Sequence record: MK962751
Direction: 5' to 3' (one strand)
Origin: Shigella phage JK16
DNA length: 51,854 nt
Positions 14,796 to 28,769 of this stretch are shown here, piece after piece (the stretch's first letter is position 1; each line of letters starts with the position of its first letter). A model generated the notes under the pieces. It was not told the origin of the DNA. It did not search any database and was given only the letters and a program-made list of their open reading frames with translations. The position numbers and the translations under genes are program-made.

Positions 14796-15210
14796 TGCAG
14801 GGGAGATAGTGAAACCTTCCCCTCTTGCCTCACTTTCCCGCCTGGCTGTCAGTGGTTGTTATGTTCCGTTCCCGCCTGTTCTTTTGTTGACCTTCCGCAA
14901 AATACGATAACAAAAAATAACAAACAATACCTATATAATACATTGAAAAATAAGGATTATTTATTTATATGTATCTATATATTATCTTTTGTTATCTTGG
15001 TTATTGTGGTATTTGGTGGGGGTATATAGTTTTTGTGTATCTATATGTGTGTATGGGTATGTAGGGGCATATATATCTATATGGCACTTTCCGCGAGAAA
15101 ACTTCGATAACAGCCAATGATAACATTGATTTATAAGGAAAAATAACGCCAATATTGTTATTGTGCCACCATATAAAATTGATAAAACACGCGGGAACAA
15201 GAAAAAACAG

Positions 15211-15239
15211 TTGACACATTAAATAGCATTATTGATAAT
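15211..15239 (+). promoter_or_regulatory. sigma70-type promoter, copy 1 (TTGACA, 17 nt, GATAAT)
   Basis: Consensus -35, 17 nt spacer, near-consensus -10, 30 nt upstream of ATG. Confidence 0.6.
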
Positions 15240-15268
15240 GCCGACACCTAACAACCAGGAGGTAGAAA

Positions 15269-15475
15269 ATGAGCGAGCAATCATTAACTGACACGCTGCG
15301 CCGTGCAGCTATTATGCTGGCTAATGGCGAGGAAGAGGCGATCAAGATTCCTGACGCGTATTTGCAGGTCCACATGTTCGGCAAGAAGTCGGCAAGCAAT
15401 CCGGCGGCCTACATTCGCCAGATCATGAGTCGAGTTCCAGAAGTCGCCGAGCGTTCCCGCCTGTTCTTTTGTTGA
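15269..15475 (+). pseudogene. truncated duplicate of the 5-prime part of the first early gene
   Basis: First 61 codons identical to the 15854 gene, then runs out of the repeat unit into a short unrelated tail. Confidence 0.6.
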
Positions 15476-15795
15476 CCTTCCGCAAAATACGATAACAAAA
15501 AATAACAAACAATACCTATATAATACATTGAAAAATAAGGATTATTTATTTATATGTATCTATATATTATCTTTTGTTATCTTGGTTATTGTGGTATTTG
15601 GTGGGGGTATATAGTTTTTGTGTATCTATATGTGTGTATGGGTATGTAGGGGCATATATATCTATATGGCACTTTCCGCGAGAAAACTTCGATAACAGCC
15701 AATGATAACATTGATTTATAAGGAAAAATAACGCCAATATTGTTATTGTGCCACCATATAAAATTGATAAAACACGCGGGAACAAGAAAAAACAG

Positions 15796-15824
15796 TTGAC
15801 ACATTAAATAGCATTATTGATAAT
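15796..15824 (+). promoter_or_regulatory. sigma70-type promoter, copy 2 (TTGACA, 17 nt, GATAAT)
   Basis: Identical to copy 1, upstream of intact gene. Confidence 0.6.
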
Positions 15825-15853
15825 GCCGACACCTAACAACCAGGAGGTAGAAA

Positions 15854-16318
15854 ATGAGCGAGCAATCATTAACTGACACGCTGCGCCGTGCAGCTATTAT
15901 GCTGGCTAATGGCGAGGAAGAGGCGATCAAGATTCCTGACGCGTATTTGCAGGTCCACATGTTCGGCAAGAAGTCGGCAAGCAATCCGGCGGCCTACATT
16001 CGCCAGATCATGAGTCGAGTTCCAGAAGTCGCCGAGCGGGGGCGCGTATCCGTTACCCGTGGAGTTTACGGGCCGGAAGATGAAAACTTCGGTAGCACTT
16101 TCTACGAGGTGCGCATTGTTGAAGGACGTCGCAAGGTTTACAACAAAGAGGCACTGGAAAGGGCAGTACGCCAGGCTAAGCGCAAGGTTGCAGAGGCGAT
16201 CATTGATATGTCACCAAACCTAGCAAACTATGCGCCGGAAGAGTATGAAACATTATCAAAGGCCGTCGCTGACTTTCACGCGATGATCAAAAAAACTTTC
16301 CTGGAGGATGAGCAATGA
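15854..16318 (+). CDS. hypothetical early protein
   Basis: 154 aa; AGGAGG RBS; first gene after strong promoter. Confidence 0.55.
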   Translation: MSEQSLTDTLRRAAIMLANGEEEAIKIPDAYLQVHMFGKKSASNPAAYIRQIMSRVPEVAERGRVSVTRGVYGPEDENFGSTFYEVRIVEGRRKVYNKEALERAVRQAKRKVAEAIIDMSPNLANYAPEEYETLSKAVADFHAMIKKTFLEDEQ

Positions 16319-16587
16319 AAAAGGCGTTAATCGGTGTTTTGGTGGCAATGGCATTCCTGACCGGATGTAAAGAAGATGGCGCGCATGTTGGCAATGTGCA
16401 GATGGCTAACCCTGGCGATGACTACAACGTAAGGGAGCTATTCACCGCTGACGGATGCACTGTTTACCGATTCTATGACGATCGCACTGTTTACTTCACC
16501 AACTGCAAGGGAACTACTAGCTGGGAAGTGTCGAAAAGCAATGGCAAAGGCACGAAGACAGAACATATGACCGTCGAGACAAAATAG
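16315..16587 (+). CDS. lipoprotein, possible superinfection-exclusion (Cor/Llp-like)
   Basis: Signal peptide with lipobox LTGC; 90 aa with three Cys. Confidence 0.5.
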   Translation: MKKALIGVLVAMAFLTGCKEDGAHVGNVQMANPGDDYNVRELFTADGCTVYRFYDDRTVYFTNCKGTTSWEVSKSNGKGTKTEHMTVETK

Positions 16588-16627
16588 CACTTTTTGTTAA
16601 AACTCAAAAACGATAACCAGGCATAAT
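16585..16627 (+). promoter_or_regulatory. motif-class promoter (motif, 18 nt, CATAAT)
   Basis: Motif supplies TAG stop of lipoprotein gene. Confidence 0.45.
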
Positions 16628-16832
16628 ACACACATAGACGGGCGGCAAGGATTGCTGCGGGAGAGGAGCGACGCAGGGGCTTGATCGAAGTGTCAGGATT
16701 CCCAACCGTGAGGCCAGAACTATCACACTCGCCACCAGGCAGAACGCTAGATAGGTCACTGAACTGAGGCTACCGACGAAGTGAAGCCCGTCACCAAAGA
16801 TTAAACGGTTATTTATGTGAAAGGGGTTAATG

Positions 16833-17012
16833 ATGGATAAGATCATCAAAATGAGCGAAGTCAAGCCGGGAATGATGGTTAAATTTGCTGGCAAATATCG
16901 CCTAGTGCTGGATAACTGCCGCAAAGAGAACATTCTTACAATTCGTGTAAATGGCAAGGCGCAGCTATTCGCCCCTAACGCAGATATTGACGTTGAAGTT
17001 AGAATTAAGTAA
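16833..17012 (+). CDS. hypothetical protein
   Basis: 59 aa; AAAGGGG RBS. Confidence 0.4.
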   Translation: MDKIIKMSEVKPGMMVKFAGKYRLVLDNCRKENILTIRVNGKAQLFAPNADIDVEVRIK

Positions 17013-17027
17013 TTAGGAGAAATCACC

Positions 17028-18152
17028 ATGTTAAAACTTGCTGACATTAAATTCCCGATCACCTTCGAATCTCGCGGCATTGGTCATTACATTTTTACTG
17101 ATGAAAAAACATGCCATAAGGTTAATATGAATAGCGACAAACTAAGCCCATCAACAATGGAGATTGAACACTTTATTGATGCGCACAATACGCAGTACAA
17201 CGCACTTAAAGACTATGGCTATGCAATGCCAGGCTACACATGTTTGCACTACAAGCCATATAAAGGCCAGGTGTTGCCAGTAAAAGAGAACAAGCAATTC
17301 CTGCTGGATAGCGAGGAGATTGTATACCCGATCACCTTTGAAACGGCAGGAAATAGCGTTGTGACTTTCACATCTCGCGACAACGGCACATATGGAAACG
17401 GCTTGAGAACAAGTTATAATGTTGATTACTTCGTCGCCTGTCATAACATGGCTAATCCTAACAACGATAAGAACAAGGTGTACTACGTGCGCGATATTGA
17501 AAGGCAGTGGCCTAAGAAAGACTCCCAGGCAGAGATTCCGATGGTTCATATGAAAACCTGCGACTACAAAAAGCTGTGGTGCTTAAGTCTGGACAATATC
17601 AAGTATCCGATCACGTTCCGCACGACTGGTAAGTCAACGATTCGCTACACATCGCGCGAAAATGGCGTTTATAGCGATGGTACGAAATCAGGGTTGAAAG
17701 TTGATTTCTTTGTCAACGGTCACAATAGATACAATCCGCACAACGAAGAGGATAAAGTGTACTACGTGGAAGACATTACAAAACACTTATTTGGAGAAAC
17801 TCCATTCGGCGGCGGTAAGACGTCAATTCAAAAAATCATTGGCGATGAGATCCACAAAGCGGCTGCCGAAATGAAAGCTCCTGGAGGCTGGCGTATTGAC
17901 AAGAGCGCATTTGCAAATCAAGAAATCGTAACGCAGGGCGCAATTGAAGATATGCCAGTTGCAGCCACTCTAAAAGGAGTCCGGCTTGATGACGGCACCT
18001 GGTATGAAGTAACGGCTACACCAAAGACGATCGAGATTCATGATGACGTTGTTATCCTTCTGCTTCACTACGGCGGCTATAAAAACCGGACGATTGCAGG
18101 TGAGATCAGCATTAAGCGCGGAACGATGATTAAGTGGAAGGTGAAGATTTGA
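17028..18152 (+). CDS. protein with three tandem repeats of a ~60-residue unknown domain
   Basis: Repeats start KFPITFESRG / VYPITFETAG / KYPITFRTTG and end HN..NP.N.(D/E)..KVYYV.DI; AGGAG RBS. Confidence 0.6.
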   Translation: MLKLADIKFPITFESRGIGHYIFTDEKTCHKVNMNSDKLSPSTMEIEHFIDAHNTQYNALKDYGYAMPGYTCLHYKPYKGQVLPVKENKQFLLDSEEIVYPITFETAGNSVVTFTSRDNGTYGNGLRTSYNVDYFVACHNMANPNNDKNKVYYVRDIERQWPKKDSQAEIPMVHMKTCDYKKLWCLSLDNIKYPITFRTTGKSTIRYTSRENGVYSDGTKSGLKVDFFVNGHNRYNPHNEEDKVYYVEDITKHLFGETPFGGGKTSIQKIIGDEIHKAAAEMKAPGGWRIDKSAFANQEIVTQGAIEDMPVAATLKGVRLDDGTWYEVTATPKTIEIHDDVVILLLHYGGYKNRTIAGEISIKRGTMIKWKVKI

Positions 18153-28017: not shown

Positions 28018-28769
28018 TAGTGAAAGGCGTCGTTAAACAATGGCGCTTTCCTGAAGCAAGCGAGCGGCAATTGCGCCGCTCAATTCAGGAGGCGATAAGG
28101 GATCTTGTTGTGCTGATGCGCAGCAAAACAAAGGAAATGAAATTTGACGCGGACACCGAAGAAATCAACGCCGCAGAGGATGAGATTAGTAGCTTCGCGT
28201 TAAAGCTAATAGCTGGCATCGCCGCATCACTTCCGGCTATCGGTTTTGCTGTTTATAAATTCAACGCGAAGCAATTTATTAACGTAGCCAAATCAACTGG
28301 AGGCAAGTCAAATTCAGCCGTTATCATCCTTATGGCTATTGGGGCCAATGCGAATGAGAGTTGGTATAGGACGCTATACGGTCAATGGCATGACATGACG
28401 ATCGCATCTCTTCAAAAGCTATTTGGAAACATCGTGTCTGACTGGTCAACCAATATTAGATTGGCAAACTTTCGCGGAATGAGAGATAGCCAGGTTAATG
28501 AATTGGCTGGTAAGAGGTTCGCAGTGTATAGCTCTTGGGGTAAGACAAGGGCGGAAAACATCATAGGCGCTTGGAATAGTAGACTCATGCGCCAGCGTCT
28601 TTATGATTCAAAAGTAACTCATTATTTTTGGCATGGTATGCTTGATGACAGAGAGCGATTGCAGCATGTACAATGGGAAGGTAAGCGCATTGCGCTAGAT
28701 TCTGAACATGATTTTCCTGGTGAGCCTTTCGGTTGTCGTTGTTGGGCCATACCAGATTGGAACAGTTAA
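28014..28769 (+). CDS. head morphogenesis protein (Mu F / SPP1 gp7-like)
   Basis: C-terminal HYFWHG...GCRCWAI pattern typical of this family; position after portal. Confidence 0.6.
   Translation: MIVKGVVKQWRFPEASERQLRRSIQEAIRDLVVLMRSKTKEMKFDADTEEINAAEDEISSFALKLIAGIAASLPAIGFAVYKFNAKQFINVAKSTGGKSNSAVIILMAIGANANESWYRTLYGQWHDMTIASLQKLFGNIVSDWSTNIRLANFRGMRDSQVNELAGKRFAVYSSWGKTRAENIIGAWNSRLMRQRLYDSKVTHYFWHGMLDDRERLQHVQWEGKRIALDSEHDFPGEPFGCRCWAIPDWNS

Follow-up and report, generated by a model that had tools for sequence, protein, structure and literature searches.

A new family of structured leader RNA upstream of a small-gene cassette in Shigella phage JK16 and other phages

What is encoded in the gap that follows a 90-amino-acid (aa) lipoprotein gene of Shigella phage JK16, where a promoter motif is succeeded by more than 200 nucleotides (nt) with no plausible open reading frame (ORF)? 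The stretch analysed is sequence record MK962751 (51,854 nt, hereafter the window), and its first-pass annotation had proposed a structured leader of 230 nt at 16600-16830, rich in guanine plus cytosine (GC), as a candidate regulatory RNA. The gap indeed contains no plus-strand ORF of at least 30 aa within 16588-16830. Its GC content (0.54-0.57 at 16600-16800) is higher than that of its flanks (0.39-0.47), although not uniquely high, since coding DNA at 15900-16100 reaches 0.58. Judged from aligned sequences, the window encodes a structured RNA domain of about 156 nt on the plus strand at 16637-16792, which lies inside the proposed interval and is the only part of it that forms a conserved unit. 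The reading as a structured leader was upheld by 22-24 covarying base pairs over three phage lineages, a clearly positive outcome of the comparison for compensatory changes, and by a promoter immediately upstream in all variants scanned. A regulatory role may be presumed; no expression platform was found.

Comparative evidence for a folded RNA

The folding energy of the single JK16 sequence is no better than that of shuffled sequences (z = +0.81 for the plus strand and -0.17 for the minus strand), so that the case beyond chance rests on comparison. Thirty-eight distinct sequences were aligned by hand around invariant blocks, and an N-padded MAFFT pass left this alignment (A3) unchanged. Standard pairs fill 95.3% of the cells of the consensus structure, a figure that hand-fitting inflates, compared with 27-42% when the 3′ partners are slid by one to three columns. 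Changes on both sides, which hand-fitting cannot create, are found at 22 of 45 pairs, compared with three to seven after sliding, and the covariation score is 0.465 rather than 0.02-0.075; the observed values were reached by none of 500 shuffles. About 70 nt of the core are nearly invariant across three phage groups that have no common flanking genes. Many pairs are G-U, for example in 19-22 sequences at three pairs of helix P3, and would be C-A mismatches on the opposite strand; the fold therefore belongs to the plus-strand transcript, where alone these pairs are valid.

A covariance model built from A3 (R1) has its sole match in the window at 16631-16798 (150.8 bits, E = 3.1e-38). It finds one copy per related locus, with no second copy in the window or in any locus, and it recognises two divergent variants outside its building set, L051 (126 bits) and L052 (142 bits). 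Unguided MAFFT alignment misplaced the variable stems, and RNAalifold then recovered only helices P3, P4 and P6. Compared with the unconstrained minimum free energy (MFE) structure, the consensus fold is less stable by 13-30 kcal/mol, and energy alone would thus have missed the RNA. The 4227 models of Rfam 15 gave no match in the whole window at gathering thresholds and nothing overlapping the element at E <= 10 within 16400-17100, nor anything at E <= 5 in the copies of Arya, WFI, Motto and L048, and ARAGORN found no tRNA or tmRNA genes in the window. The RNA therefore belongs to no family in Rfam. Resemblances to the 5′ end of tmRNA, the sarcin-ricin loop and the T-loop were considered by eye and set aside. 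Literature searches returned no description of the element and no transcriptome of these phages. The RNA family is new, whereas a structured 5′ leader RNA of a phage operon is a known kind of element.

The opposing explanation is that the locus is selected as protein-coding sequence (the antisense ORF of 158 aa, a plus-strand ORF or an N-terminal extension) or as a DNA element (a replication origin or a single-stranded DNA priming signal). It draws on a frame that is open through the element in 32 of the 38 variants, on genes annotated across the RNA in phages KarlBarth, HeidiAbel and tunus, and on the primase or helicase genes that adjoin it in Jilinvirus and Dhillonvirus. However, the same frame has four stops in the window and four in phage Motto, no frame is open in all variants, and, as read from the aligned sequences, the frame that runs through the invariant core is not the same in the Dhillonvirus type as in the Jilinvirus type. 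Variants differ in length by 1-2 nt, with co-deletions of 1 base pair (bp); substitutions occur as base-pair partners and not in a codon-wobble pattern, the G-U pairs point to one strand only, and a promoter always lies directly upstream. The antisense ORF that the first-pass annotation had noted (16604-17080) exists but is not conserved. It was rejected together with the plus-strand ORFs and a possible upstream ORF. The coding or DNA-level reading is thus largely refuted, and its residual likelihood is slight indeed.

Coding sequences are annotated across the RNA in KarlBarth (bas17_0049, L010 1167-1793) and HeidiAbel (Bas97_0052, L006 1249-1368), and antisense across it in tunus (CDS0074, L002 2264-2506). 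One of them extends the downstream gene at its N-terminal end and has its start within the -10 box. These are probably mis-annotations.

Helices, invariant core and competing pairings

Helix P1 closes three parts, namely the GGA-loop hairpin P2, the nearly invariant core and a variable arm, Px-P5-P6 (Table 1); the model also places an irregular long-range helix, P3, and a conserved centre of 30 nt. P1 is the long-range pairing of GACGGGC with GCCCGTC that had been noticed at the outset, with its 3′ strand where it had been placed and its 5′ strand beginning one base before the 16638 originally given. Compensatory changes turn P1 into GACGGGUG/CACCUGUC in Motto, GUCGAC/GUCGAC in KarlBarth, GGGCGGCG/CGCCGCCC in L029 and AGGCAG/CUGCCU in L051. 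The ACCA that had been pointed out after P1 is present, but only semi-conserved: RCC(A/U) follows P1 in about 10 of 15 P1 types, and the A/C-rich leaders found throughout JK16 make a CCA ambiguous. P2 is the inner part of a proposed stem, GCGGCAAGGATTGCTGC, the remainder of which is not conserved. Its stem may be GCAA/UUGC, GCA/UGC, UGC/GCA or UAUA/UAUA, with the GGA loop retained in all four, and the loop reads (A)GGA(U/C) in 40 of 40 variants. The repeated CGAAGTG that had also drawn attention is a coincidence, the second copy being CGAAGCA, CGAAGTT or CGAAGAA in relatives.

The variable arm covaries most freely at P5, which differs in almost every lineage (CUAUC/GAUAG, CGCAC/GUGCG, CAUUGG/CCAAUG, CCAGGU/ACCUGG, CAUGAU/AUCAUG, CAUAAC/GUUAUG, CGCUGG/CCAGUG); P1 and P2 vary likewise. 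The window has CUAUC(A)/(U)AGAUAG at P5, with a conserved internal loop CA/AACGC, and CU-C-GCC-ACCA-GGC-AG at P6. Px reads GGCCAG/CUGAACUG; Dhillonvirus has an entirely different, AU-rich Px. One lineage lacks 1 bp, lost from both strands. Variable helices around a compact and highly conserved core would also suit a self-cleaving or otherwise catalytic RNA, that is, a new ribozyme class that processes the leader, and phage intergenic regions are rich in small ribozymes. No Rfam ribozyme family matches the element, however, no conserved cleavage-site context is obvious, and the conserved nucleotides exceed those of typical small nucleolytic ribozymes; catalysis is a very improbable explanation.

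The core contains an invariant G-run, GGGGCY (16676-16681), for which two pairings compete, one with GGCYAYC at 16768-16774 (P3 inner) and the other local, in a hairpin designated Halt. Double changes in Halt occur in independent single variants (C-G to U-A in L051, G-C to A-U in L046, U-A to G·U in L033), next to several further changes that are wobble-compatible, and one Halt pair is disrupted in the Dhillonvirus lineage. P3 inner keeps its pairing in 40 of 40 variants, with GU-to-GC wobble changes only; P3 outer is paired in 98.5-98.9% of cells, and its sole changes, GU to GC, give it weak support. G23, C34 and G50 are changed together in L046. A helix first placed at 16693-16697/16706-16711 (P4) was downgraded, as L033, L046 and L051 break it and compensate Halt, with one P4-compensatory change (in L046). 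If P3 inner and P4 are exchanged for Halt, 94.4% of cells are paired and 24 pairs are compensatory, whole-structure statistics that are equally good. The folds with Halt and with P3 inner differ by no more than about 1 kcal/mol in five of the nine representatives, and both are much less stable than the unconstrained MFE structure. Halt may be the native pairing, or else the RNA may be bistable.

Promoter, cassette and distribution

The RNA of the window begins 9 nt after the -10 box and ends about 25 nt before the Shine-Dalgarno (SD) sequence of a 60-aa gene. The promoter motif that the first-pass annotation had placed upstream is confirmed: the window holds 14 copies of CTTTTTGTTAAA, where 0.8 would be expected, and a (C/T)ATAAT box follows each of them at a distance of about 19 nt. 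All 38 variants scanned have a -10-like hexamer whose last base lies 6-10 nt ahead of P1, and the promoters are of three unrelated types (the T1-type motif; TTGACA-N18-TATTAT; TTGCAA or TTGACA-N16-17-TATAGT). Because the -10 box adjoins P1 in every variant scanned, the RNA would form the extreme 5′ end of the primary transcript, with transcription in the window predicted to start at about 16633-16636. Several other copies of the motif lead through a leader of about 30 nt (..CAYCGAAACGAA..) straight into an SD sequence; the copy at 16590 differs from them by a long GC-rich segment inserted in the leader.

Downstream of the RNA, the first start codon lies 31-54 nt (mostly 41-45) past a CGACGA block in most lineages, and the linker is A/C-rich, with no sequence conservation from one lineage to another. 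The proteins encoded first after the RNA are unrelated (phrog_8121, phrog_3127, phrog_24586 and others), and the RNA thus presents itself as a generic module that is independent of the genes behind it. Where enough flanking sequence is available (EP23, L019, L024), the unit looks like an insulated cassette of terminator, promoter, RNA, two to four small genes and terminator. In the Dhillonvirus phage EP23, a strong terminator (GGCCCGC-ATATTA-GCGGGCC-UCUUUUU) lies about 650 nt downstream of the RNA and is followed by genes of 83, 59 and 476 aa, with no promoter-like site until past the 476-aa gene. These three genes would need terminator read-through, since no promoter-like site precedes them.

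The same region offers little for a classical switch to act upon. No terminator was found after the RNA in the window, and duplex energies between the core and the downstream initiation region were no better than those of shuffles in 15 lineage representatives; SD sequestration and a cis target of the kind used by C4 or CI RNA were rejected, as the pairing is not above chance. A switch that responds to a ligand or protein would nevertheless have an aptamer in the core, for a metabolite, an ion or a host protein such as CsrA on the GGA hairpin, and the G-run would toggle between Halt and P3 inner and thereby alter P1 and 5′-end protection, RNase access or ribosome loading. In its build the RNA resembles an aptamer, in that P1 closes it, several junctions and invariant joiners lie within, and the peripheral stems vary; two mutually exclusive and nearly isoenergetic pairings are kept in 40 of 40 variants, with compensatory changes in support of one of them; and the distance to the SD sequence is short and roughly constant. 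The (A)GGA(U) loop of P2 in a hairpin of 3-5 bp fits the consensus of CsrA sites, and an invariant GGAGAGG follows about 10 nt downstream, a resemblance in sequence only, which leaves the rest of the core unexplained. On the other side, the downstream genes belong to unrelated families, neither a terminator nor a conserved SD-sequestering pairing is found, and no candidate ligand suggests itself. P3 inner, moreover, rests on wobble changes only, so that the supposed switch may be a single fold. A switch of this kind appears unlikely.

A sensitive blastn search with 16625-16832 matched 170 of 50,697 phage records, and a Jilinvirus-type query returned the same 170. Full-length matches occur in about 19 Warwickvirus or Hanrivervirus genomes; about 150 nt match at 83% in Jilinvirus-like phages of ~41 kb (Arya, HeidiAbel_Bas97, Lumpael, IME279, BUCT618, MQ-4); well over 100 Dhillonvirus genomes (among them HK578, EP23, JL1, SO-1 and several BASEL phages) match at 92% over a core of 52 nt; and single Tempevirinae, such as 'Pseudomonas phage' Motto and PHB17, also have a match. 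Since the neighbouring Dhillonvirus gene occurs in 151 records, the RNA is close to universal in that genus. There was no match in 5,426 complete Escherichia coli genomes or in 72,556 plasmids, and 185,579 species genomes yielded one real match (a phage-like contig of 42.7 kb) and one chance match. Pattern scans of IMG/VR and the JGI metagenomes, which being exact reach close relatives only, added variants that include the divergent L046, L051 and L052. The hits L030 (Streptomyces) and L031 were checked and discarded as chance pattern matches. All carriers found are phage or phage-like sequences, largely of Enterobacterales phages.

Another possibility is that the RNA is a stable molecule acting in trans, as a decoy, a sponge, or an anti-defence or host-takeover RNA. 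The promoter would then determine its 5′ end, RNase cleavage within the A/U-rich linker would create the 3′ end, and the mRNA behind it would be operon economy only. The RNA alone is conserved across lineages, next to variable accessory genes in insulated cassettes, it shows presence/absence polymorphism like an accessory gene, its 5′ end coincides with the predicted transcription start, and a tRNA-like RCC(A/U) follows P1 in most P1 types. Phage RNAs that are embedded in leaders or operons and processed out are known, namely the tRNAs and the species 1 and 2 RNAs of T4, C4 of P1 and P7, and CI of P4. Against this, the RNA has no terminator or defined 3′ end; the phage leaders are all A/C-rich here, so that the 'CCA' may reflect composition; and neither ARAGORN nor the Rfam models of C4, tRNA and tmRNA find anything. 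No target complementarity is established. Colinear AGGAG, UGAUC and CCAACCG blocks that match the 3′ tail of 16S rRNA chain to 16 nt, a value reached by 17 of 5000 shuffles and weaker in Dhillonvirus; as the comparison was made post hoc, it is a weak lead only. A trans-acting role appears unlikely.

Relatives that lack the interior of the RNA also lack the 60-aa gene. Some Warwickviruses have no RNA; in SECphi27, other genes occupy the locus. In phage BEK12A (L003, 1830-1860), the RNA interior and the 60-aa gene have been lost, and what is kept downstream of the same promoter is a hairpin of 7 bp, GGGCGGC-ACGGC-GUCGCCC. In its arms this hairpin is identical to P1 of the Jilinvirus type and not to that of the window; it looks like the product of a precise internal deletion in a horizontally exchanged copy. 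Such retention of a bare P1 hairpin, the position of P1 at +1 to +4 in every variant scanned and the A/C-rich linker ahead of the SD sequence would all suit a constitutive 5′ stabiliser or translation enhancer that has no specific partner and combines a stable fold with an unstructured ribosome landing site. A stabiliser does not need some 70 invariant nucleotides or internal loops and junctions conserved across three phage groups, however, and raw stability is not what selection preserves here, given how far the consensus fold lies above the MFE. The role of a mere stabiliser is quite unlikely.

Two sets of host labels were noted among these sequences. Nineteen 'Campylobacter phage' records match the Warwickvirus flanks at more than 90% identity, and the 42.7-kb contig that carries the RNA (L029) is binned as a metagenome-assembled genome of Cereibacter sphaeroides; mislabelling or contamination is the probable cause in both cases.

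The 801 bases around the RNA are 97-98.5% identical to the Warwickvirus phages Phunderstruck, swan01 and tunus. Warwickvirus belongs to the Tempevirinae of the Drexlerviridae, the T1-like coliphages. The region is a run of small plus-strand genes, in which a 154-aa protein, the 90-aa lipoprotein, the gap and the 60-aa and 374-aa proteins follow one another. The promoter motif is phage-specific, with AATAGCACTTTTTGTTAAAAC followed after 18-19 nt by (C/T)ATAAT. In the 374-aa protein the phrog_7116 domain is present three times, with repeated YPITF... units, and homologues of this protein in Phunderstruck and BEK12A have 297-298 aa; JK16 appears to carry one extra repeat. A perfect tandem duplication of 585 bp was found at 14867-16036, where the 300-nt reference 14867-15166 recurs 585 bp downstream at 100% identity. 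It contains identical ORF pairs (14969-15064 and 15554-15649; 15229-15399 and 15814-15984), and its first copy holds a shortened version (15269-15475) of the 154-aa gene at 15854-16318. The duplication covers an AT-rich, promoter-like region and could be real or an assembly artefact.

Table 1. Features at the RNA locus and in compared phages; positions refer to the window unless another locus is named
Feature	Position	Strand	Remarks
Promoter motif CACTTTTTGTTAAAAC ... CATAAT	16588-16627	+	-10-like CATAAT at 16622-16627
Structured RNA domain, P1 5′ strand to P1 3′ strand	16637-16792	+	Covariance-model match, covariation, homologues
P1 5′ strand GACGGGC	16637-16643	+	Pairs with 16786-16792; 7 of 8 aligned pairs change on both sides
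P2 hairpin GCAA-GGA-UUGC	16645-16655	+	Loop (A)GGA(U) conserved
Purine-rich invariant joiner GGAGAGGAG, SD-like	16660-16668	+	GGAGAGG identical in 40 of 40 variants
P3 outer 5′ strand (GC..CGC)	16668-16674	+	Pairs with 16775-16782
Core hairpin Halt, GGGGCUUGAU (16676-16685) / GUCAGG-AU-UCCC (16692-16703)	16676-16703	+	Compensatory changes
Invariant AACCGUGA	16704-16711	+	Links core hairpin to variable arm
Variable arm Px-P5-P6	16712-16766	+	6 of 7 P5 pairs and 3 of 5 P6 pairs compensatory
Conserved 3′ strand AGGCUACCGACGAAGU	16767-16782	+	Partner of P3 outer and P3 inner
P1 3′ strand GCCCGTC, then ACCA	16786-16792	+	Aligned relatives
A/C/U-rich unstructured linker with SD sequence (AAAGGGG)	16793-16829	+	Precedes start codon
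First cassette gene, 60 aa, phrog_8121	16830-17012	+	
Second cassette gene, 374 aa, three phrog_7116 repeats	17028-18152	+	
Promoter motif sites	811, 1480, 3969, 5040, 16590, 18384, 22469	+	Motif occurrence
Promoter motif sites	8289, 11443, 13360, 14665, 31288, 35042, 45820	-	Motif occurrence
EP23 intrinsic terminator, seven G-C pairs and UCUUUUU	L017 6347-6328	-	Abuts SD sequence of next gene
HK022 putL hairpin	L050 ~28255-28275	-	
HK022 putR hairpin	L050 29490-29510		

Proposed action and known systems

The explanation favoured here, at a probability of roughly 0.3, is a cis-acting nascent leader that acts on the host expression machinery in the manner of a put RNA and also protects the 5′ end. 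It is preferred because the position is strictly 5′-terminal, the invariant core is large, and neither an association with particular genes nor a classical expression platform was seen. Phage HK022 encodes two put RNAs, putL and putR, which are cis-acting, factor-independent antiterminators (Hwang et al. 2022, PMC9378689). By analogy, the JK16 RNA would act in cis while being transcribed. The terminal P1 would leave no single-stranded 5′ tail and would shield the triphosphate end from RppH and from 5′-end-dependent RNase E; the bare P1-type hairpin that survives in relatives without the RNA interior fits such a role. A large invariant core implies a conserved partner or an intricate fold, and this one may be the binding surface for a conserved host component, for which the transcribing RNA polymerase is the preferred candidate. 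The polymerase would become resistant to pausing and to intrinsic and Rho-dependent termination, as with HK022 put, and expression of the cassette would be guaranteed. In Dhillonvirus, the genes behind the internal terminator would be expressed as well, and put-like action would explain the arrangement of that terminator.

Several observations weigh against a put-like leader. No terminator was found within the cassette in the window or in Arya. A promoter-like site lies directly after the cassette terminator in L019 and just upstream of it in L024, so that read-through is not obviously needed in either. Only about 19 of 254 related records carry the full element, which is dispensable in Warwickvirus, and the competing core pairings suit a switch better than a constitutive device. 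The put RNAs have about 70 nt in two stem-loops and a V shape, in contrast to the ~156 nt, closing helix and two junctions found here. Homology with put was rejected, as a scan of the HK022 genome with R1 gave no match at E <= 10 and Smith-Waterman scores against putL and putR lie within those of shuffles (for putL against putR, 0 of 500 shuffles).

More broadly, it is tentatively proposed that virulent coliphages, including those of the BASEL collection, possess a bistable, promoter-proximal nascent RNA that either reprogrammes the host RNA polymerase or ribosome with no phage protein or senses a host signal, in control of an early accessory or anti-defence cassette; or it may be released to act as a decoy for a host factor. 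The chance is substantial that it works by a mechanism not yet described. Such covariation outside any Rfam family is rare in well-studied E. coli phages, and the RNA is carried by about 170 sequenced phages, including BASEL isolates and the classical HK578, EP23 and JL1, in whose GenBank records it is either unannotated or labelled as protein. Its site at the start of an early cassette may reveal how virulent siphoviruses that depend on the host polymerase secure or tune early expression. If the RNA is put-like, RNA-only antitermination would reach beyond lambdoid phages; if it is a switch or a decoy, it would represent a new phage-host interface. The systems are tractable, and natural deletion variants such as BEK12A are ready controls.

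Four kinds of known RNA invite comparison. Riboswitch aptamers are similarly closed by a P1, have invariant joiners, covarying peripheral stems and possible alternative pairings inside the core, and lie in a 5′ leader close upstream of an SD sequence; the present RNA differs in having no single gene family downstream, no expression platform found and no Rfam match. The C4, CI and T4 species 1 and 2 RNAs are about 77-140 nt long and carry processing signals like those of tRNAs; for C4 and CI, antisense targets are defined. They resemble the present RNA in their location at the start of an operon or embedded in one, in a helical end followed by a CCA-like sequence and in possible release by host RNases, whereas the Rfam C4 model does not match here and the downstream initiation region contains no target above chance. 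The ompA and flhDC leaders, examples of 5′-terminal stabiliser hairpins and CsrA-protected leaders, are short and poorly conserved in sequence. They share a helix within a few nucleotides of the 5′ end and a GGA-loop hairpin nearby, and the deletion variants of the present RNA keep such a terminal hairpin, but its large invariant core is not explained by a stabiliser role.

HK022 put differs in belonging to a lambdoid phage rather than to virulent siphoviruses, and the identity of the first bases of putL, AUAGACG, with those of the window RNA is not accompanied by significant overall similarity. Like put, however, the present RNA is predicted to be a phage nascent RNA just downstream of an early promoter, whatever genes follow, in enterobacterial phages dependent on the host RNA polymerase. 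A weak likeness to putL is a -10-like hexamer NANNAT, here (C/A)AGGAT at about +12 to +20, and the hairpins of both put RNAs (GUUC-AGGAU-GAAC in putL, GUCA-AGGAU-GAC in putR) present an AGGAU loop, the same motif as in the loop of P2.

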